Source: Pseudoteredinibacter isoporae (lineage in GTDB: Bacteria > Pseudomonadota > Gammaproteobacteria > Pseudomonadales > Cellvibrionaceae). From it: a stretch of DNA of 64,000 bases. The DNA is taken from assembly GCF_011602085.1 (NCBI RefSeq), contig NZ_JAAONY010000004.1:93472-157471 (forward strand), written 5' to 3'. Below are positions 28,638 to 39,478 of the stretch, piece after piece. The notes under the pieces are model-generated. The model was not told the origin of the DNA. It saw only the letters and a list, made by a program, of their open reading frames with translations, and did not search any database. Within the stretch, counting starts at the first letter, position 1, and each line of letters begins with the position of its first letter. A program made the translations under genes and the position numbers.

Positions 28638-28855
28638 TTGTGATGGGGTAATGCAAGAGTTCTGAATCTGCCTCTGGGGCCGCTTTCATGGTATGGACAT
28701 ATGCCGATATTAAGCTCTGTGTCTCCCTGTTTCAGTGCGGCTCTGTGGTTGCGGATGGGTGGCCTTGGCGGGTGTGGGTTTTGACGACATGTTTTCAACT
28801 GTTTGTTTTTAATAGGTTTTCCGGGTTTCAATTCATTTGATTAAGGGCTTATTAA

Positions 28856-28903
28856 TTATTACATGTAATAGCGTTGACATATCACATGTAACAGAATATA
28901 TTT
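28856..28903 (+). promoter_or_regulatory. Sigma70 promoter (TTGACA-N17-TATATT) overlapped by palindromic TTACATGTAA / CACATGTAAC operator-like repeats
   Basis: attaTTACATGTAAtagcgTTGACAtatCACATGTAACagaaTATATTtt. The -35 and -10 hexamers are consensus or near-consensus. TTACATGTAA is a perfect 10-bp palindrome, repeated as CACATGTAAC between -35 and -10. Confidence 0.55.
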
Positions 28904-28908
28904 TATCC

Positions 28909-29538
28909 ATGAAAGCGAAATCTTCAGCACATTATCAACGCGAATACCGCCGCCGCTTGCGAGAGCAGGGTTTGGTGAAGAAAGAGGTGTGGATTCTTCC
29001 TGAGAATGCCAAGCAGCTTGCTGATATTGAAAAGCAGTTGCGCTTGCCTGGGAGCGGGGTTCGATCTAAAGGAGTGATGAGTATGACAGATAAAGTGGAA
29101 CGTTGGACGACGAGCAGTTTGTTCGAGGCTCTGGCAGAAACTGAACTTTTTGCCAGCGGGCAGGCGACCCTGGAATTAATCGACGGAATTGAGCCAACCC
29201 TGCACATTGTGATGACTGAGTACGGTGATTTGCCGGTTTTCCTGACGGTGAGTGGCGAGCAAATTATCGTTGAGTCTGTACTTTGGTCAGTTGCTGAGGT
29301 CAGCAATGTCGATGCATTTAATAAAACGGTGTTACAAACGCACAAATATTTTCCGCTTTCGACGATCAGTCTGGATGCAAGAGTCGATGGAAGCGATTAC
29401 TATCACATGTTTGGCGCATTGAGTGCGTCGTCCATTCTTCCCAATATTGTGTTTGAAATTGAAGTGTTGGCAAGCAATGTGATTCAGGCCACAGAGGCCT
29501 ACAGTGAGTTTTTATCCATTCCAGTTGAAGCGAGCTAA
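28909..29538 (+). CDS. YjfI-like DUF2170 protein (possibly two products: leaderless small N-terminal ORF plus DUF2170 from ATG 29089)
   Basis: C-terminal 150 aa (MTDKVERWTT...YHMFGALSASSILPNIVFEIEVLASN...) resembles the DUF2170/YjfI family that precedes PspA-like YjfJ in E. coli. AAAGGAG lies 8 nt before ATG 29089. ATG 28909 sits only about 6 nt after the -10, so it would be leaderless. Confidence 0.5.
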   Translation: MKAKSSAHYQREYRRRLREQGLVKKEVWILPENAKQLADIEKQLRLPGSGVRSKGVMSMTDKVERWTTSSLFEALAETELFASGQATLELIDGIEPTLHIVMTEYGDLPVFLTVSGEQIIVESVLWSVAEVSNVDAFNKTVLQTHKYFPLSTISLDARVDGSDYYHMFGALSASSILPNIVFEIEVLASNVIQATEAYSEFLSIPVEAS

Positions 29539-29552
29539 GCAAGGAGCAGGTG

Positions 29553-30239
29553 ATGAATATTTGGTCAAAAATGATGACAGCCCTGCGTGGTGGCGTTAAT
29601 GAAGCGGGTGAGGCTATTGTCGATAGCCAGGCATTGAGAATTCTGGATCAGGAAGTTCGGGATGCCTCCGAGGAGTTAAAACAATCCAAAGGCAGCTTGG
29701 CGGAAATCATGGCCAGACAGAAGCTGGCCGAAGAAAAAGTTGCGCAGCTTCAAAAGCAAATCGATGAGCATGAGGGTTATGCAATCAAAGCCTTGGAAAA
29801 GGGCGATGAAAACCTGGCCCGCGAAGTGGCTGAAAAAATTGCCAGCCTTGAAAATCAGCAGTCTCAGGAAAAGGAGTCCGCTGCTGGCTTTTCTGAAAGC
29901 GTTAGCAAGTTGCGCACGGCCATTCAACAGAGCGAGCGCAACATCAAGCGGCTTAAGCAACAGGTGGATACCGTTAAGGCCACGGAAAACGTTCAGAGGG
30001 CCCAAGCTGCAGTTGCTGAGCGACACAGCGGTTCTAATTCCAAGATGCGTACAGCCATGGATTCCCTGGAGCGTATCAAGGAGAAGCAGGCCTTGAAAGA
30101 AGCACAAATGTCGGCAGCCAGTGAGTTGGCAGAATCCGATGTTGACGTTTCCCTGCAAACCAAGCTGGAAGAAGCCGGCATTGCCAGCACTGGAAACAGT
30201 GCCGACGACATTCTTGAGAGACTGAAGAAAAAATCCTAA
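29553..30239 (+). CDS. PspA/IM30-family protein (YjfJ-like; ESCRT-III-like fold family)
   Basis: MNIWSKMMTALRGGVNEAGEAIVDSQALRILDQEVRDA... is the typical PspA N-terminus, followed by long coiled coils. 228 aa. AAGGAG lies 6 nt before the ATG. Confidence 0.85.
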   Translation: MNIWSKMMTALRGGVNEAGEAIVDSQALRILDQEVRDASEELKQSKGSLAEIMARQKLAEEKVAQLQKQIDEHEGYAIKALEKGDENLAREVAEKIASLENQQSQEKESAAGFSESVSKLRTAIQQSERNIKRLKQQVDTVKATENVQRAQAAVAERHSGSNSKMRTAMDSLERIKEKQALKEAQMSAASELAESDVDVSLQTKLEEAGIASTGNSADDILERLKKKS

Positions 30240-30288
30240 CGATACAAAAGCAACATAATACAAACGCAAGGAATAAGGAGGTGTGGGA

Positions 30289-30987
30289 ATGTTTGCAATT
30301 TTACTCAGTGAAGGTATGAATCCCTTTTACCAAAATATTGCTTCGTTCCCCACCGTTTTTTTTACTTTCTTTCTTGCCATTACCGTATTGTATTGGTTGG
30401 TAGCGGTTCTCGGCTTTGTGGATATTGATATTCTCGATTTCGATATCCCGGATGCCGATGGCAGTATGGACGTAAACCCGGACAATGGATTGTCCACCCC
30501 TGATGTGCTCGCCGGCTTTATGCTCCGTTATGGATTAGCAGGGGTGCCGGTCACCATCATTGTTTCCCTGATCGCATTATTCGGCTGGTTGGCTTGCTAT
30601 TACATTGTTCACTTCCTGTTTGGCATTATTCCTGATGGTCTAATGCGATACCTCGCTGGCATCCCTGTATTGCTGGTTTCATTATACCTGGCCGTGCACA
30701 TTACAGCGGTGTTGATTAAACCGCTGAGACCTCTGTTTCAGAAAGCTCAGCAACAAACGGTCAAACATATTCTTGGTCAAACCGCTATTGTTCGTACGTC
30801 CAAAGTTGACAAGGACTTTGGTGAGGTCGTTATGGAAGATGGTGGGGCAGGCTTAATCCTGAAAGCTCGTGCAGCGGGCGATGCGGTTTACACCAAAGGC
30901 AATCGGGTGGTGCTTTTGGAGCATTTAAAAGAAGACAACCTTTATCGAGTGGTATCTGAAGAAGAATTTTCAGGTCCCCAGCAGTAA
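30289..30987 (+). CDS. YqiJ-like (DUF1449/NfeD-like) inner-membrane protein, flotillin partner
   Basis: N-terminal TM helices, an acidic loop DIDILDFDIPDADGSMD, and a C-terminal soluble beta domain (QTAIVRTSKVDKDFGEVVMEDGGAGLILKARAAG). AAGGAGG lies 7 nt before the ATG. Immediately precedes the flotillin gene, as in E. coli yqiJK. Confidence 0.6.
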   Translation: MFAILLSEGMNPFYQNIASFPTVFFTFFLAITVLYWLVAVLGFVDIDILDFDIPDADGSMDVNPDNGLSTPDVLAGFMLRYGLAGVPVTIIVSLIALFGWLACYYIVHFLFGIIPDGLMRYLAGIPVLLVSLYLAVHITAVLIKPLRPLFQKAQQQTVKHILGQTAIVRTSKVDKDFGEVVMEDGGAGLILKARAAGDAVYTKGNRVVLLEHLKEDNLYRVVSEEEFSGPQQ

Positions 30988-31027: not shown

Positions 31028-32974
31028 ATGGCTGACTTATCTGTACTTATGCCAATCGTAACCGGTGTAGGCATATTTTTTATCGTACTCATGGGCCTGG
31101 CGGCTCTATTCAAAGCCTTCTATGTGAAAGTTGAACAGGGGACAGCGTTGATTGTTAACGACATGAGTTCCAGCCCCAAGGTGCATTTTACCGGCGCTCT
31201 GGTTTACCCGATCATCTATAAGAAGGAACTGATGAAAATCTCCTTGATCACTCTGGAGGTAGATCGTCGGGGTAAAGATGGGCTCATCTGTGCAGACAAT
31301 ATGCGAGCCGATATTACCGTAGCGTTTTATCTACGCGTGAATGAAACCGCCGAAGATGTATTGAAAGTCGCCAAGTCCATTGGTGCAGGTCGTGCTTCGG
31401 ATAAGGAAGCCGTTAACCAGCTATTTAACGCCAAGTTTTCTGAAGCCCTGAAAACCGTTGGTAAGCAGATTGAGTTTGTTGCTCTGTTTGAAAATCGCCA
31501 GGAATTCCGTGAAAAAATTATCCAGGTGATTGGTGATGATTTGAACGGTTATGTTCTGGAAGATGTGGCCATTGATTATCTGGAGCAGACTCCGAAGGGC
31601 TCTCTGGATCCAAGTAACATCTTGGATGCGGAAGGCATTAAAAAGATTACCGAGTTAACCGCTGAGCAAAACGTACGCACGAATATTCTAGAGCGTGACG
31701 AAGAGCTGGCGATCAAGAAGAAAAATGTCGAAACCGTAGAGGCTATGCTTGAGCTGGAACGTCAGCAAGCCGATGCAGAGGCTAAGCAACAGCGTGAAGT
31801 TGCCACCATTCAGGCCCGCGAAGAAGCTGAGACCAAAAAGGTTCAGGAAGAAGAGCGCCGTAAGGCCGAAGCCACAACCATTCAGGTTGAGCAGGATCTG
31901 GCCGTGCAAACCGAAAACCAGAAGCGTGAAATTGAAGTGGCTGAACAAAACCGTCAGCGCGCGGTGGCCATCGAAGAAGAAAAGGTGACCCGAGCAAGGG
32001 ACCTTGAGATTGTTTCCCGTGAACGTGAAGTTGAGATCCAGAAAATCGAAGCGGATAAGGCCATTGAAGTCGAGAAGAAAGAAATTGCCAATGTGATTCG
32101 TGAGCGTGTTGCGGTTGATAAAACGGTTGCGATCGAGGAAGAGCGAATCAAGGAGGTTCGCGAGGTATCGGAAGCGGATCGCGCCAAGCAGACTCAGGTA
32201 CTGGCCGCCGAGGCGGTTGCCGAAGAAGAGAAAGTGAAGCAGGTGAAAGCGGCCGAGGCAGAAGAGCTGTCAGCCAAGCACAAGTCTGTTGAGATTACGA
32301 CGTTGGCTCAGGCTGAGTTGGATGCCGCTGCAAAAGAAGCCGATGCCAAGAAAAAACTGGCCGAAGGTGTTCAAGCCGAAGAGGCAGCGTCTGGTCTGGC
32401 TGAAGCTAAGGTTCAGTCCGCAAAAGCGGATGCCCTTGAGAAGGAAGGTGTTGCTGAAGCTCATGTTATTAAGGCGAAAGGTGATGCCGAGGCTGATGCC
32501 TTGCTGGGTACCGGTAAAGCCCAGGCCGATGTGACTGCTGCGCAGGGTGATGCAGAAGCACAGTCTGCTCGCGAAATTGGTTTGGCAAATGCCGAGGTAA
32601 CTCGTGAACAGTTCAAGGCTGAAGCCGACGGTTTGGTCGATAAGTTCCAGGCGATGAACAGCATGAGTGAAGATGCCCGTTCCCACGAAGAATATCGCAT
32701 GGGTCTTGAGACTGCGCTTAAAGAGGCCCTGGCTTCCATCGAAGCAGGTAAAGACATCGCCCGTGAAAATGCCGAAGTACTGGCGGTGGCCTTGCAGAAA
32801 GCGAAGATCGATATTGTGGGTGGTGAAGATCACTTCTTTGATAATTTCGCCAAATCTCTTTCAATCGGTAAGGCCGTTGACGGTCTGGCGGACAAGAGCG
32901 GGACCATTCAGGCGCTTTTGCACCGAGTGATTGAAGGCAAACCTGAAACATCCAAAACTGCTGAGGACGCTTAA
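31028..32974 (+). CDS. Flotillin-family SPFH/band-7 protein (YqiK-like)
   Basis: N-terminal TM, an SPFH domain (YVKVEQGTALIVNDMSS...ITLEVDRRGKDGLICADNMRADITVAFYLRV), then about 300 aa of Ala/Glu/Lys-rich coiled coil. 648 aa. Confidence 0.85.
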   Translation: MADLSVLMPIVTGVGIFFIVLMGLAALFKAFYVKVEQGTALIVNDMSSSPKVHFTGALVYPIIYKKELMKISLITLEVDRRGKDGLICADNMRADITVAFYLRVNETAEDVLKVAKSIGAGRASDKEAVNQLFNAKFSEALKTVGKQIEFVALFENRQEFREKIIQVIGDDLNGYVLEDVAIDYLEQTPKGSLDPSNILDAEGIKKITELTAEQNVRTNILERDEELAIKKKNVETVEAMLELERQQADAEAKQQREVATIQAREEAETKKVQEEERRKAEATTIQVEQDLAVQTENQKREIEVAEQNRQRAVAIEEEKVTRARDLEIVSREREVEIQKIEADKAIEVEKKEIANVIRERVAVDKTVAIEEERIKEVREVSEADRAKQTQVLAAEAVAEEEKVKQVKAAEAEELSAKHKSVEITTLAQAELDAAAKEADAKKKLAEGVQAEEAASGLAEAKVQSAKADALEKEGVAEAHVIKAKGDAEADALLGTGKAQADVTAAQGDAEAQSAREIGLANAEVTREQFKAEADGLVDKFQAMNSMSEDARSHEEYRMGLETALKEALASIEAGKDIARENAEVLAVALQKAKIDIVGGEDHFFDNFAKSLSIGKAVDGLADKSGTIQALLHRVIEGKPETSKTAEDA

Positions 32975-33082: not shown

Positions 33083-36000
33083 ATGCAGAAGGAAAACCAG
33101 ATGGTAGAGCAGGTGCAATCTACAGATCTTGTCGACAATGCAGTCGCGGAAGGCGGCGCTTACGAAATCATTAAAAAGCGCTTGCTGGAGCAGGGTAAGC
33201 AACTCGACGCCAAAATCCAGACACTGAATCAATCCAGACTGGAAGAGTTTGGCAGCTCGGATATGAACGTCGCTGCACGGGTTCGAGTGCGCACCGAAAA
33301 CAATTGCATCGCGCGTGATATTGTTCAGATTGGCGATCATTTATTGTTTGCCTATAACGTCTTTATTGGGCTTAAAAAAGAAACCAAGGTCGAGGACGTC
33401 TTTGCGCTTTTTGATGTCAAAGAGGGGACGGATGGCGTCGAAATGACCCCTGTGTCTCTGGAAGGCAGCTTTCTGAAAGAAGCCTCTTTCCTGAGTGATT
33501 TTGAAGAGCTGTATCGTTATTACAAACACACCAAACTCATCCAGCTAATTATTAAAGATGGCAAATTGTTGGCTGGATTCCAGATTGGTGAGCGTCTGGA
33601 AGATATCCGAGTGTTTCGCTGGTCGGTATCACACGACGGGAAAACCGTTCAGTACATCGACAATCGTGGCGAGCGTGATATTCAGTTACCTCCGTCCTAC
33701 GACTTTGAATGGATCGAAACCGATCGTGAAAATGCCGTTCACGGCCGTCATCCACACATTAATATTCTCGATACGGTGTTTGTGGAGACCGTTGGTGGCG
33801 ACCTGACCATCAAGATCGAGAACAACACCGAAGACGGCCTGGGCATTTATCGCGAAACCGTAGAAGATAAGACTCAATCTCTGGATGATGCTGAGATCGC
33901 CTATGCAGCGGTTGGCAGTCTGATTCTGATTAAAGTGCGGCCTTATCGTGAAGATAATCGGCGCTACTTTATTTACAACACCCTCACCGAAGAAGTCCTC
34001 AGGGTCGATGCGATTGGTGAATCCTGTGTTCAACTTCCGGAAGACCATGGGCTTATCTTCCCGGGTGGGTATTATCTGCAAACGGGTGAATTCAAACATT
34101 TCGATGAAGAAACCGAAGGGCTGAAGTTCAAACGCAAGATCCGTTCGCCCAATGGCGAAGATATGCTGTACGTGTTTTATCAGCCTGAAGATGGGGTGGT
34201 AGGCCTGTTCTCCTATAATCTGATTGAGAAGGCATTGCAGAACCCGATTTACGGCCACGGATATGCCTTGGCCGAAAATGGCCGACTGGTGATTTTCTCG
34301 GCCGAGGTGGAGCCGACACGTGTACATCCTATGCAAATATGGGAAACGCCCTTTGAAAGTGCAGAATACGCTAGCAAGGCACCTGCCAGTCAGAGTTTTT
34401 TGGGGCGTATCGGTAATGCTGAATTGGTTCGAGGGGTGTCCGATCTCTACAGCATTTGCCGAATGATCAACAATCAAAGTGTTTCTGCCCGGTTATATGA
34501 AGAACTGGAAAAGTCGGCCAAGAAAATATTCGATGATCACTATTGGATCGAAGAGTCTGAAACCCAGGACATCGCGGCGGTTTTGAAGGAAATATCATCT
34601 ACATCAGAGTTGGTGATTGATGAGTTTGAAAAAGTCCAGAGCATTCAACAGCAATCTGCCAGGAGTATGCTGGAAGCGGAACAGCAACAGGAGGCACTGT
34701 TGCAATCGGTTCGCCCGGAAAACTGGGACAATGCCGAAGAATATGTGAACGCATTGGCTCAGCTGCGCCGTCAGCGTGGACATTTGGTGACCATGCGCAG
34801 TTTGCGCTATATCGATCTGGAAAAAATAGGCAAGCTTGATGAAGAGCTGCAATCGGTCGAGGAGAATCTCACCGAACGTACCGTCGAGTTCCTCTCGGAT
34901 GAGCAGGCGCTGGAACCGTATTTACATAAAATCGATGACTTGAACAAGCAGGTTGACGGGGCGGAGACCATTGCCGTTTTGGAGCCATTGATTGAAACCA
35001 TCGAAAGTACCGCCGAAGGTCTGGATCTTCTATCAGAGTTGATTGGCACGCTGAAGGTGGATGATGCGACGATAAGAACTCGTATTATCGATTCCATTTC
35101 GATGGTGTATTCAAAGCTGAATCAGAGTAAGGCGAGTGCCAAACATAAACAAAAATCTTTGGGTTCATCCGAAGCAATTGCGCAGTTTTCTGCGCAGTTC
35201 AAATTGTTTTCACAAAGTATTACTAATGCTTTGGGCGTTTCCAGCACTCCGGAGAAATGTGATGAACAGCTTTCACGCTTGCTGGTGCAGTTAGAAGAGC
35301 TGGAAAGCCAGTACAGCGAATACGATCAGTTCCTTGCGGATATCATGGATAAGCGCGAGGAGATTTACGAATCGTTCGAAGGTCACAAGCAACAATTGCT
35401 GGATGCTCGGCAGCGCAAGGCGCAATCGGTTTCCGATGCGGCCTCCCGCATTCTGGGCAGCATTGAAAAACGTTCATTGAAATTCACAGAAGCGGATGAG
35501 CTGAATACCTATTTTGCGTCCGATGCCCTGGTGATGAAAATCCGCGAGCAGGTTGAACAACTGCGTGAGCTGGATGCCGCTGTGAAGGCGGATGATGTGG
35601 AAGCAAAACTGAAAGCCATTCAAGAGCAGGCCTTGCGTTCCCTGCGCGACAAAACCGATATCTATGAAGATGGCGGCAATGTCATTAAGTTGGGGCCGCG
35701 CCATAAGTTCTCGGTAAACACTCAAGAGTTGGATCTCACGATCATTCCCCGGGACGGTCATTTGAATGTCCACCTTACCGGTACCGATTATTACGAGGTG
35801 ATTGAGCATCCCGAGTTGATGGCGCTCAGAGAGTTTTGGGGCATGGGATTGGAATCTGAAACTCCTGAGGTGTATCGAGCTGAATACCTGGCTTCCTTGA
35901 TTCTTGATGCGGCGAAACATCAGCAGCATGATTTGTCGATGCCAATACTGAAGGCAGCCTTGAACAAAGAAGGTGAGCTTGATCGTGTCGTTCGCGAATT

Positions 36001-38461
36001 CGCCGGACCGCGTTACAAAGAGGGTTATGAAAAGGGCGTTCACGACCACGATGCAGCCTTGTTACTGCGCACCTTGATTCCGGCGTTTGATAGCGCTGAT
36101 CTGCTGGTGTTCGACCCATTGAGTCGAGCACTGGCCCAGGTCTTTTGGGCCAACATCAAAGGTTTGAGTCGCAACAATCGCCAGAACGGGCGAAAGGAAG
36201 AACGAAAGGAGCAGCAAAAGCAGGCGGCCATTTCCTACACCAGCTGGCCCGAGCGTGCGCAATCGGCGTTGCAGATGGCATCCATATTCCGAAGTCGTGA
36301 AGCCATGGAGCTGCTGTCAGAAGAGGTGGCCAACTCCATGCGCGATTTTGTTGAGCAGCATCCTTTGCCGGTCAGTGAGCTGGATATGCGTCGCGCTGCG
36401 GATTACCTGGTAGCCGAGTTGGGGCGTGAACAAATCGAATTTATTGGCAGCAAATACGCCGTACAGTTGGCCGAAGAGCTCAAACGTTCGATGAATGATG
36501 AAACCTGGCGTCGTTATCAGATGGCGCTGGAAAAGATGATCGGCTGGCCGGCCGAGCGTTGGAATTTAACCGCCGCTTGGTTGCAGGCGCTGGTAGATGA
36601 AAAACAGTTATCGTCTTTGGAGAGTTATATTCCTGAAGCTGTTGCATTGATTAATGCTGATGAGCGTTTGGATCGCCGTTTAAGTGAAGTGGATCTGGAA
36701 CTCAAGATTGAAGGCTTGATGGGAGATCATGCCATCATCGAAGATCGAAGCCTGTCTTTCGGCCTGGATGCTTTTCTTTTGAAGCTGGAGCGTCATCGCT
36801 TTGAGGTCGTACCAGCCTATCACCGTTACCTGGATCTGCGGCAGGATATCATTCGCAGTGAGCGGGATATGTTGCGCTTGGAAGAGTTTAAGGCGCGCCC
36901 ATTAAGCTCGTTTGTGCGCAACCGTTTAATCAATGAATCTTATTTGCCACTGATTGGTGATAACCTTGCCAAGCAGATGGGTACGGTGGGCGACAGTAAG
37001 CGCACCGATCTTATGGGATTGTTGATGATGATCTCTCCTCCAGGTTACGGTAAAACCACCTTGATGGAATATGTGGCCAACCGTTTGGGTTTGATTTTCA
37101 TGAAGATCAATTGTCCCTCACTTGGTCATGAAGTGGTTTCGCTGGACCCGGAACAAGCCCCCAATGCCACGGCACGCAAAGAGTTGGAGAAACTCAATCT
37201 CGGCTTGGAAATGGGCAATAATGTCATGTTGTATCTCGATGATATTCAGCATACCGATCCGGAATTTCTCCAGAAGTTTATCTCACTGTGTGACGGCACT
37301 CGTAGGGTTGACGGCGTGTGGAAGGGTAAAACCAAAACCTACGATATGCGAGGACGCAAGTTCTGTGTGGTGATGGCGGGTAACCCGTATACCGAATCCG
37401 GTGAAGCGTTTAAGATTCCTGATATGCTTGCGAACCGTGCGGATATCTACAACCTCGGTGATATTCTTGGGGGGATGGACGAACAATTTGCGCTCAGCTA
37501 TATCGAAAACTCCCTGACCTCCAATCCGGTTCTGGCGCCGCTGGCTGTGCGGGATATGGATGATGTTTACAAGCTCATTGATCTGGCCAAGGGAGCCAAT
37601 GTCCCCACTACGGATCTGAGTCATCAATACAGTGGTGCTGAAATCAATGAAATCACCGAAGTCTTCAAGAAGATGATGGTGATTCAGGATGTTGTGCTCA
37701 AAATCAACAAGCAGTACATCGCGTCGGCAGCTCAAAATGATAAGTACCGTACTGAGCCGGCGTTCAAACTGCAGGGAAGCTACCGAAACATGAACAAGAT
37801 GACCGAAAAGCTATCGGCGGTCATGAACGAGAAGGAACTGATGCAGCTGATAGCGGATCACTATCTGGGTGAAGCCCAGCTGTTGACCACCGGCGCTGAA
37901 GACAACCTTTTGAAGTTGGCGGAGTTGCGCGGCAATATCACGGAAACACAGAGTGCCCGTTGGGAGCAGATCAAAAAGGACTACATGCGCAATAAATCCA
38001 TGGGCGGCGATGATGCCGATACCGGCGCCCGAGTCGTTGCGCAATTGTCAGACCTGGTTGAAAGCGTTCAGGGCTTATCACAACATGCCGCTGAAAACGG
38101 GGCTAAGGCAGAGTCAAAGCCTGAATCTAAACCTAAGCCAGAGCCTGAACTGAAGCCTCAGAACGACAACAGCGAAAAGCTCATGCAGCTTATGGAGGAA
38201 CTCACCGAAGCCGTAAGGCAGTCGAAGCCATCTGTTCAGGTGGTCAATGAGCCAGTGCCGGGAATCAACAAGCTTTTGTCGGCCCTTGCGCAGACCATTG
38301 AACACAGCATTTCGCCGCTGGTGCGCAGTATGGATAAAAAACTGGATATCGATTTGCGAACCCATGACAAAATGCGTGATATTTCCGAGCAGTTGCGCAA
38401 TCTGGAGTCAGAATTTTCAGGCAAAGCTGAGTCGGCCAATCCGGATGATCCGGTTGTTTAA
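33083..38461 (+). CDS. Giant (1792 aa) soluble protein with single classical AAA ATPase module; N-terminal beta-rich domain, long helical/coiled-coil middle, acidic KPE-repeat tail; family not recognised
   Basis: Uninterrupted 5.4-kb ORF with ATG at 33083. Walker A PPGYGKTT (37037-37060). Walker B VMLYLDDIQH (Asp-Asp at 37238-37243). Sensor-1 VVMAGNPY (Asn at 37382-37384). Arg-finger-like IPDMLANRADIY. No signal peptide or TM. C-terminal AESKPESKPKPEPELKPQ low-complexity stretch. Intrinsic terminator directly downstream. Confidence 0.8.
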   Translation: MQKENQMVEQVQSTDLVDNAVAEGGAYEIIKKRLLEQGKQLDAKIQTLNQSRLEEFGSSDMNVAARVRVRTENNCIARDIVQIGDHLLFAYNVFIGLKKETKVEDVFALFDVKEGTDGVEMTPVSLEGSFLKEASFLSDFEELYRYYKHTKLIQLIIKDGKLLAGFQIGERLEDIRVFRWSVSHDGKTVQYIDNRGERDIQLPPSYDFEWIETDRENAVHGRHPHINILDTVFVETVGGDLTIKIENNTEDGLGIYRETVEDKTQSLDDAEIAYAAVGSLILIKVRPYREDNRRYFIYNTLTEEVLRVDAIGESCVQLPEDHGLIFPGGYYLQTGEFKHFDEETEGLKFKRKIRSPNGEDMLYVFYQPEDGVVGLFSYNLIEKALQNPIYGHGYALAENGRLVIFSAEVEPTRVHPMQIWETPFESAEYASKAPASQSFLGRIGNAELVRGVSDLYSICRMINNQSVSARLYEELEKSAKKIFDDHYWIEESETQDIAAVLKEISSTSELVIDEFEKVQSIQQQSARSMLEAEQQQEALLQSVRPENWDNAEEYVNALAQLRRQRGHLVTMRSLRYIDLEKIGKLDEELQSVEENLTERTVEFLSDEQALEPYLHKIDDLNKQVDGAETIAVLEPLIETIESTAEGLDLLSELIGTLKVDDATIRTRIIDSISMVYSKLNQSKASAKHKQKSLGSSEAIAQFSAQFKLFSQSITNALGVSSTPEKCDEQLSRLLVQLEELESQYSEYDQFLADIMDKREEIYESFEGHKQQLLDARQRKAQSVSDAASRILGSIEKRSLKFTEADELNTYFASDALVMKIREQVEQLRELDAAVKADDVEAKLKAIQEQALRSLRDKTDIYEDGGNVIKLGPRHKFSVNTQELDLTIIPRDGHLNVHLTGTDYYEVIEHPELMALREFWGMGLESETPEVYRAEYLASLILDAAKHQQHDLSMPILKAALNKEGELDRVVREFAGPRYKEGYEKGVHDHDAALLLRTLIPAFDSADLLVFDPLSRALAQVFWANIKGLSRNNRQNGRKEERKEQQKQAAISYTSWPERAQSALQMASIFRSREAMELLSEEVANSMRDFVEQHPLPVSELDMRRAADYLVAELGREQIEFIGSKYAVQLAEELKRSMNDETWRRYQMALEKMIGWPAERWNLTAAWLQALVDEKQLSSLESYIPEAVALINADERLDRRLSEVDLELKIEGLMGDHAIIEDRSLSFGLDAFLLKLERHRFEVVPAYHRYLDLRQDIIRSERDMLRLEEFKARPLSSFVRNRLINESYLPLIGDNLAKQMGTVGDSKRTDLMGLLMMISPPGYGKTTLMEYVANRLGLIFMKINCPSLGHEVVSLDPEQAPNATARKELEKLNLGLEMGNNVMLYLDDIQHTDPEFLQKFISLCDGTRRVDGVWKGKTKTYDMRGRKFCVVMAGNPYTESGEAFKIPDMLANRADIYNLGDILGGMDEQFALSYIENSLTSNPVLAPLAVRDMDDVYKLIDLAKGANVPTTDLSHQYSGAEINEITEVFKKMMVIQDVVLKINKQYIASAAQNDKYRTEPAFKLQGSYRNMNKMTEKLSAVMNEKELMQLIADHYLGEAQLLTTGAEDNLLKLAELRGNITETQSARWEQIKKDYMRNKSMGGDDADTGARVVAQLSDLVESVQGLSQHAAENGAKAESKPESKPKPEPELKPQNDNSEKLMQLMEELTEAVRQSKPSVQVVNEPVPGINKLLSALAQTIEHSISPLVRSMDKKLDIDLRTHDKMRDISEQLRNLESEFSGKAESANPDDPVV

Positions 38462-38493: not shown

Positions 38494-38524
38494 AGAAAGA
38501 GGGCATGTCCCTCTTTCTTTATTT
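38494..38524 (+). terminator. Rho-independent terminator after giant AAA gene
   Basis: gaaagaggg-catgt-ccctctttc followed by tttattt, 33 nt after the stop. Confidence 0.8.
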
Positions 38525-38722: not shown

Positions 38723-39478
38723 GTGGGTTTCATTATTCCAAAAAAACGATCCGCTGTTATTGTTTTCTGCATATTCTTTCTCAACGCCTGTTCTGAATCC
38801 TGGGATGGAAAATCAACCGCTGAAGAAATGTACCGCATTTATTTTGAGGGTTTTCCAGGTACGGTGAAAGCCTATGAAGCACATCCGGAGGAAAAGGCTC
38901 GACTTCTGGAGCGCAGTGGGCTCGCTTATGAAAGTGGCGGGCAGGGTGCGGCGGACAGTGCCTTTTTGGAAGAGTTCTGGCGCTTTTTCAGCACACAAAC
39001 CAGATTGAGTATACTGCGTGCTCCGGATGCTGATGTGATTCAGTATGCGCTGGCTCTGGCGAACTGGTTGGATTTCCTCGCCGATAAGTACGGCGCCTCT
39101 TGTCACGATATTGCGCTGAGCGGAAGTGATTTATTGCGATTGGGCTTGGTGTTGGAACACAGCAATACCCAGGGTTTTATCAGCGCCGGTGATAATTTGA
39201 TGTTGAAAGCCGGGCCCAGTAATCGAACACGAGCTTTGGCCAGGGACATGAAGCGACAGTTTGAAAACCTTAAACGGCATCTTCCTGTCGCGATGAACCG
39301 TAAACCCTATGAGATGAAGTTTGTTCTCGATCCATTTACTGCCGAAACCAAAGAGGAAAAACTCCAGGCCTGCCGAAGCTTATCTGCCAGCCTGTATTAC
39401 TTCAGTGCGCCAGAACGCAATAAGGCAACATCGGCAGCTTTTTTACGGAGCTATTTGCAGGGTGAGAATAACCCCTAG
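38723..39478 (+). CDS. Hypothetical lipoprotein
   Basis: GTG start preceded by GGGGG. Signal peptide plus lipobox MGFIIPKKRSAVIVFCIFFLNAC. 251 aa with no recognised domain. Confidence 0.45.
   Translation: MGFIIPKKRSAVIVFCIFFLNACSESWDGKSTAEEMYRIYFEGFPGTVKAYEAHPEEKARLLERSGLAYESGGQGAADSAFLEEFWRFFSTQTRLSILRAPDADVIQYALALANWLDFLADKYGASCHDIALSGSDLLRLGLVLEHSNTQGFISAGDNLMLKAGPSNRTRALARDMKRQFENLKRHLPVAMNRKPYEMKFVLDPFTAETKEEKLQACRSLSASLYYFSAPERNKATSAAFLRSYLQGENNP

Follow-up and report, generated by a model that had tools for sequence, protein, structure and literature searches.

The open reading frame at 33083–38461 encodes a full-length, intact member of the DUF3686–DUF7902–AAA+ family of giant cytoplasmic ATPases. 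It lies in a 64,000-nucleotide stretch of Pseudoteredinibacter isoporae DNA, here called the window, to which all positions refer; the operon and the features mapped in it are on the + strand. The giant ATPase gene is the last of a five-gene operon, as follows: bacA/yjfI, pspA, a yqiJ/nfeD-like gene, an SPFH/flotillin-like gene, and the ATPase gene. Both the architecture and the operon have been described by Ravi et al. (2024). That is, the window protein is a new member of a known family, and the architecture itself is already published. What the window adds is mainly a set of corrections: the protein is no DNA repair enzyme, its ATPase module is probably not of the classical AAA type, and its partners can be named.

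The reading frame is uninterrupted and free of frameshifts, with 1792 codons plus a stop, as the original prediction had it. The product is 100% identical to the NCBI entry 'AAA family ATPase [Pseudoteredinibacter isoporae]', a protein of 1786 amino acids (aa). Since the frame is intact and the annotated protein identical, the gene is not a pseudogene. The length of 1792 aa is counted from the first ATG and that of 1786 aa from the ATG at 33101, which encodes M7. Translation probably starts at this second ATG. An AAGGA Shine-Dalgarno sequence (33089–33093) sits 7 nt upstream of it, the first methionine of homologues aligns with M7, and NCBI uses the M7 start. With the start at M7, annotated residue numbers are 6 below those of the original prediction, which are kept here. 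The landmarks placed on the protein at that time are all correct: GLFSYNLIEKA (aa 374), VFYQPEDGVVG (aa 364), K1324, D1386/D1387, and AESKPESKPKPEPELKPQ. The protein had also been said to lack transmembrane segments and a signal peptide, and indeed it has no signal peptide and nothing transmembrane-like, the maximal Kyte-Doolittle mean over 19 residues being 1.47.

Two AlphaFold2 (AF2) models, computed from alignments of 41 sequences, cover aa 1–1200 (mean pLDDT 82.3) and aa 1001–1792 (mean pLDDT 79.4). They support the four-part layout proposed earlier, i.e., a β-rich N-domain, a helical scaffold, an ATPase module, and a tail; the 'helical scaffold', though, holds two small β elements and a disordered loop. 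At pTM values of 0.43–0.48, the models do not give the arrangement of the domains relative to each other. The DUF3686 N-domain (33203–34543; aa 41–487) matches PF12458 over profile positions 2–448 of 448, with an E-value of 1.3e-206. A helix, aa 26–56, is followed by a β-rich core, aa 62–421, of some 27–28 predicted strands. By Foldseek, the one source for this assignment, the core is most likely a divergent β-propeller of about seven blades; hhalign between the putative blades detected no repeat, the best probability being 12%.

Next in the protein is an all-helical region (34361–35662; aa 427–860), the long helices of which, aa 497–542, 662–719, and 748–798, reach up to 58 residues. DUF7902 (34904–35158; aa 608–692; PF25472, E 6.8e-27) lies inside this region. 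A disordered loop, aa 860–883, leads to a second helical stretch with β elements (35732–36976), delimited by AF2 and the conservation profile. This stretch comprises a small three-strand sheet (aa 884–907), a helical bundle (aa 932–1192), a second small β element (aa 1198–1227), and the pre-AAA helices (aa 1228–1298). Altogether there are about 850 aa of mostly helical bundles, reminiscent of spectrin or talin. Comparison of the helical segments by hhalign detected no internal repeat (best probability 36%).

The AAA+ module (36995–38002; aa ~1305–1640) is the best-conserved region of the protein. It consists of an N-linker, an α-β-α core (~aa 1313–1480), and helical lid elements that extend to ~aa 1640. 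Structure comparison confirms that the P-loop region has the AAA+ fold. There is one P-loop in the protein, so the prediction of a single ATPase is borne out; the module had been placed at aa 1300–1560, a segment that is too short, as the conserved part reaches ~aa 1640. The Walker A motif is SPPGYGKT (37034–37057; aa 1318–1325, including K1324), in which Ser takes the place of the usual first Gly; it is invariant in the family. Walker B is MLYLDD (37226–37243; aa 1382–1387), followed by IQH, with an invariant Asp-Asp instead of the usual Asp-Glu. The sensor-1 and arginine motif, GNPYTESGEAFKIPDMLANRAD (37379–37444; aa 1433–1454), contains the invariant N1434 and R1452. Across 63 sequences, down to ~31% whole-protein identity, K1324, D1386/D1387, N1434, R1407, R1452, R1556, and R1568 do not vary; likewise, SPPGYGKT, LDDIQH, and GNPY...PDML.NRAD are all found in the window protein and are invariant in the family alignments. 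As all of the nucleotide-handling residues are invariant, the view of the protein as 'scaffolding, not enzyme' is doubtful. The invariant Asp-Asp of Walker B leaves room for a slow or switch-like ATPase: lacking the usual catalytic Glu, the module may hydrolyze ATP in that manner and not as a processive motor.

The module had also been called classical AAA, and this it probably is not. The classical AAA clade has a second region of homology with two closely spaced arginines after sensor 1. In the giant ATPase the sequence after sensor 1 is GNPYTESGEAFKIPDMLANRADIYNLGD, which has a single arginine, R1452, and thus no two-arginine motif of the R-x-G-R type. Classical AAA modules have no hairpin before sensor 1, whereas here a β hairpin is predicted (37304–37345; aa 1408–1421, with strands at aa 1408–1413 and 1416–1421). 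It sits between helix α3 and the sensor-1 strand, which is the position of a pre-sensor-1 hairpin. The match to PF00004 covers only about half of the Pfam model; AAA_5 aligns over 124 of its 139 positions. PF00004, AAA_5, AAA_22, and RuvB_N each match 40 of 40 family members at similar E-values, so that the clade is not decided by sequence alone. In a profile search of the PDB the best matches are classical AAA proteins (Rix7, NVL, and p97; E 1e-5 to 3e-4), and the similarity spans ~70 residues, N-linker and Walker A only, with the pattern ...PL.G......G......G.LL..PPG.GKT. The whole protein gave only P-loop-level matches to solved structures, the best with E 0.029.

The nearest structural relatives of the module are NorQ and CbbQ, of the MoxR class, which places it with MoxR, dynein, and midasin. 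The NP-x8-...-R spacing of the sensor-1 motif, with the arginine of ...P..L..R after a 7–8 residue spacer, is one that we take to be MoxR/dynein-like. In the helix-2 region, AF2 shows a short helix (aa 1344–1347), a conserved 14-residue loop (aa 1348–1361), and then α2, with no hairpin. MoxR ATPases usually partner VWA proteins, a trait that is typical, not strictly defining, of the lineage; Pfam finds no VWA-domain protein in the operon or its flanks. Some JGI records label the family 'MoxR-like ATPase'. To summarize, the AAA+ module is probably closest to the MoxR, NorQ/CbbQ, and dynein lineage and is probably ring-forming.

The C-terminal tail (38003–38458; aa 1641–1792) was analyzed with AF2, an alignment of 41 homologous tails, and the family alignment. 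It begins with a conserved GGDD motif and a helix, continues with a variable low-complexity linker, and includes a conserved helical terminal motif, VxNEPVPGxxKLL..LA.T.EHS..PLVRSMDKKL (38234–38365; aa ~1718–1761). The linker contains the KPE stretch AESKPESKPKPEPELKPQ (38108–38161; aa 1676–1693). Its pLDDT is below 50, i.e., the KPE stretch is predicted to be disordered between helices, and the gap fraction of the tail is 0.5–0.64 in the family alignment. Of the 'acidic KPE-repeat tail' described earlier, the acidity holds for the tail, with a net charge of −10, but not for the KPE stretch, with a net charge of 0. Nor does the repeat hold: the stretch is a non-conserved linker, missing even in a homologue that is 89% identical and carries the same species annotation. 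Lacking both conservation and an underlying DNA tandem repeat, it was rejected as a functional repeat and is treated as a flexible linker. No Pfam family matches the tail.

The operon is preceded by a putative promoter-like sequence, TTGACA-17-TATATT (28874–28902), found by consensus scan with 11 of 12 matches. Two 15-nt, palindrome-containing, operator-like repeats, TAT(T/C)ACATGTAA(T/C)AG (28857–28871 and 28880–28894), flank the −35 hexamer. For these elements we only infer a possible role in regulation. Gene 1 (28909–29538) is of the BacA/YjfI type, with DUF2170 (Pfam E 4e-51), a CesT-like chaperone fold, and a short basic N-terminal extension. It scores 317.7 bits against NCBIfam NF050185, 'biofilm formation regulator BacA' (cutoff 300), in a match that begins at residue 25 of the ORF; its probable start is the ATG at 28909, as opposed to the TTG at 28837 of the mechanically called ORF. 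Gene 2 (29550–30239) encodes a PspA/IM30 protein of the ESCRT-III superfamily, YjfJ/BacB type (Pfam PspA_IM30, E 3e-52). Gene 3 (30283–30987) encodes a YqiJ/short-NfeD-like membrane protein, similar to BacC, with about three transmembrane segments; the hydrophobic segments fall within aa 18–148, and there is a weak Pfam match to YqiJ_N (E 0.009).

Gene 4 (31028–32974) encodes a 648-aa SPFH/flotillin-like protein, resembling BacD/PaFlo3, which was assigned by its orthologues and by synteny. It has an N-terminal membrane anchor (aa 1–36), a long Glu/Ala-rich helical region, and a conserved C-terminal motif, GG(E/D)xxFFDxF. The window protein itself has no Pfam match; among its orthologues, 47–81% identical, Band_7 is matched in 4 of 40 (best E 5e-11). 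Neither the protein nor its profile matched a solved structure. Gene 5 (33083–38461) is the BacE-like giant ATPase gene. Between genes 4 and 5 the RNA folds no better than shuffled sequence (z −1.4). A terminator-like hairpin (38494–38518), with a 10-bp stem and then a T-rich run, lies 33 nt past the stop codon of the giant gene and likely marks the end of the operon. The ORF at 38723–39478 was considered as a sixth gene and rejected: it has no family match and a counterpart in 0 of 80 related loci. By Pfam, the flanks of the operon are metabolic on both sides, including fumarase, a PaaK-like ligase, and an ABM monooxygenase.

The giant ATPase carries the Pfam set DUF3686, DUF7902, AAA, and AAA_5. 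The full architecture is common to more than 6100 clusters at 90% identity and is therefore not a chance assembly. At 50% identity there are 758 representatives; full-length members have 1590–2044 aa and the same Pfam set. The gene is present in the genomes of at least 589 species, in Gamma-, Beta-, and Zetaproteobacteria, Myxococcota, and Actinomycetota, and the range further includes Acidobacteria, Deinococcus, and Hymenobacter. Of 80 related loci, drawn from several phyla, 77 have an SPFH/flotillin-like gene as the immediate upstream neighbor of the giant gene, in the same orientation. In the other three the contig ends at that point; that is, the 77 are every locus with upstream DNA. Independent annotation names the upstream neighbor as Band_7 in Acidobacteria and, in RefSeq, as an SPFH domain-containing protein in pQBR103. 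An NfeD-like gene is found in 73 of the 80 loci, pspA in 38, and bacA in 37. Thus, the core conserved across phyla is a triad of NfeD-like protein, flotillin-like protein, and giant ATPase, and the BacA–PspA pair is an add-on present in about half of the loci. In other lineages, genes for a rhomboid protease, a PLD-like protein (15 of 80 loci), and TelA lie downstream of the ATPase gene. The pQBR103 locus adds polyamine-related genes. The family is absent from all 50,697 phage records searched and present in 13 of 72,556 plasmid records, nearly all of them replicons of at least 0.39 Mb (one is 169 kb); accordingly, a mobile-element reading was set aside.

The P. aeruginosa counterpart is BacE (PA14_16190/PA3728), of the bacABCDEF 'biofilm-associated cluster'. 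These genes are co-transcribed, and BacE is up 8.9-fold in a bacA mutant (PMC10948618). PA14_16160 is a (short) NfeD and PA14_16180 is the SPFH protein PaFlo3, the deletion of which has a mild phenotype, with ~20% less biofilm (PMC13086221). The order BacA (DUF2170)–PspA–NfeD/YqiJ–SPFH–giant ATPase and the domain description are the same as in the window, and the Pseudomonas orthologues are 57–58% identical to the window ATPase over the full length. The targets of the RT-PCR primers published for the PA14_16180/16190 junction are the 3′ end of the flotillin gene and, in the giant gene, the TENNCI motif; both are conserved sites, found in Pseudomonas loci as well as in the window. Unlike the P. 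aeruginosa cluster, the window operon ends after the ATPase gene, with no bacF, PLD, or rhomboid gene, and its promoter region is σ70-like, whereas a σ54 site has been proposed in P. aeruginosa. In the literature, no bacE mutant phenotype was found, and PA3728 is mentioned only incidentally.

What does the giant ATPase do? We give an even chance to the proposal that it is an ATP-driven remodeller of the co-encoded flotillin/PspA membrane scaffold. The basis is genomic context and co-expression only, and the decisive evidence is the context: flotillin directly upstream wherever upstream DNA is available. The original prediction had guessed at a membrane-protein recognition platform, and this fits the operon, with its YjfI/BacA, PspA, three-TM YqiJ/NfeD-like, and flotillin-like products, as well as the pairing with flotillin across phyla. 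In the proposed mechanism, the single, probably ring-forming AAA+ module would supply mechanical work. The propeller-like N-domain, set on the ~850 aa of helical bundles, would recognize the flotillin/NfeD assembly by its cytoplasmic face or tails and, where present, the ESCRT-III-type polymers of PspA. Recognition of the scaffold could likewise come from the conserved C-terminal motif, which sits on a flexible linker. ATP turnover would then assemble, disassemble, or recycle scaffolds in membrane maintenance or envelope stress, by analogy with Vps4 on ESCRT-III and with AAA+ FtsH and its SPFH cage HflK/C.

Membrane organization and repair depend centrally on flotillin/SPFH scaffolds and PspA/ESCRT-III polymers. 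We know of no dedicated flotillin remodeller in any domain of life. Being huge, strictly conserved, and genetically linked, in hundreds of species, to one flotillin/NfeD pair, the giant ATPase is an obvious candidate for the missing energy-consuming component. Only tentatively, and aware that the idea may well be wrong, we suggest that the BacE family could be the first ATP-driven machine dedicated to assembling or disassembling a flotillin (SPFH) scaffold. In that case it would correspond, in bacteria, to Vps4/NSF, with flotillin/NfeD cages as its targets and cross-talk to PspA/ESCRT-III; the conserved C-terminus of flotillin would be read by the propeller-like head or by the tethered C-terminal motif of the ATPase. 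The family is experimentally tractable, e.g., through P. aeruginosa bacE.

An alternative that we consider unlikely is that the ATPase is a client-directed chaperone or extractor, which unfolds, inserts, or extracts membrane or membrane-associated clients in a flotillin microdomain. The flotillin/NfeD cage would then be only a docking platform, as HflK/C is for FtsH. MoxR-type ATPases are typically maturation chaperones, and the nearest structural relatives, NorQ and CbbQ, are MoxR-class maturation/remodelling chaperones. A large propeller-like domain suits the recognition of varied partners, and the rhomboid protease, PLD-like, TelA, or pQBR103 polyamine genes could encode co-workers or clients. 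However, the loci have no client gene in common, flotillin and NfeD alone being universally linked, and the operon has neither a protease domain nor a VWA adaptor.

Still less probable is a nucleotide-gated static scaffold, i.e., a spacer or adaptor that tethers the flotillin platform to other cytoplasmic structures, its AAA+ module being an ATP-binding oligomerization switch with little turnover. This reading is close to the 'scaffolding ATPase' first suggested. The Asp-Asp of Walker B is in keeping with it, and so is the build of the protein: as predicted, the non-catalytic N-terminal region is very large, more than 70% of the protein is non-catalytic, the bundles are spectrin- or talin-like, and the net charge of the whole protein is −89. 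On the other hand, invariance extends to the sensor-1 Asn and several arginines, and no part of the protein is better conserved than the AAA+ module, which would be unexpected were hydrolysis unimportant, whereas the helical segment aa 1001–1200 has the lowest conservation ahead of the tail.

It is highly improbable that the operon is an anti-phage or abortive-infection module, in which a sensor ATPase and membrane proteins (PspA is the 'phage shock protein'), sometimes with a PLD enzyme, mount a membrane-directed response. Many defence systems do have large proteins with a single ATPase and an N-terminal sensor domain, and a PLD-like gene follows the ATPase gene in some loci, as noted above. 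Yet PADLOC gave no match for the giant protein, the flotillin-like, NfeD-like, or BacA proteins, and only coiled-coil noise on PspA; the family's absence from phage records and rarity on plasmids, a gene order that is stable across phyla, unlike that of patchy defence islands, and the metabolic neighbors in the window also speak against it. A DNA repair ATPase, the reading given in the Pfam DUF3686 description and in inherited database names ('DNA repair ATPase', 'ATPase involved in DNA repair'), is effectively refuted by genomic context: apart from these names there are weak, P-loop-only RuvB matches (E 0.003, against a cutoff of 282–299 bits), while no DNA-binding, nuclease, or helicase domain is detected in the protein, the profile of aa 1–1274 has no PDB match at E up to 10, no repair genes are nearby, the invariable partners in the 80 loci are membrane proteins, and literature searches on DUF3686, and on flotillin with 'DNA repair ATPase', found nothing, including any paper linking DUF3686 to repair.

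The proposed remodeller can be compared with four known types of AAA+ system. With the MoxR class (NorQ, CbbQ, and RavA) and with dynein/midasin it shares the near-full AAA_5 alignment, the NP-x8-...-R motif, and the predicted pre-sensor-1 hairpin. It differs from MoxR-class proteins in size, being about sixfold larger, in its unique N-terminal region of 1300 aa, and in having no VWA partner. Its helix-2 insert is a conserved loop with no clear hairpin in AF2, Walker A starts with Ser, Walker B has Asp-Asp, and the N-linker and P-loop are more like those of classical AAA proteins. Indeed, the N-linker and P-loop pattern is shared with p97/Cdc48 and Rix7/NVL, from which the giant ATPase differs in having no two-arginine second region of homology and in its predicted pre-sensor-1 hairpin.

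The other two comparisons concern partners. For SPFH proteins, there is a precedent of an SPFH scaffold working with an AAA+ machine at the inner membrane, namely FtsH with the HflK/C cage, and also the m-AAA protease with prohibitins (PMC13220708). FtsH, a classical-clade protein, is a protease anchored in the membrane, whereas the giant ATPase is soluble, lacks a protease domain, and pairs with a flotillin-type SPFH protein plus NfeD. In the Vps4/ESCRT-III and CdvC/CdvB systems, an AAA+ protein is encoded with an ESCRT-III-superfamily polymer, as with PspA here, and the same logic of polymer turnover at a membrane is proposed (PMC11237479). Since just 38 of the 80 loci encode PspA, it cannot serve as the substrate throughout the family. 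Vps4, for its part, belongs to the classical AAA clade, is small, and carries an MIT domain; the giant ATPase has no MIT domain and probably belongs to another AAA+ lineage.

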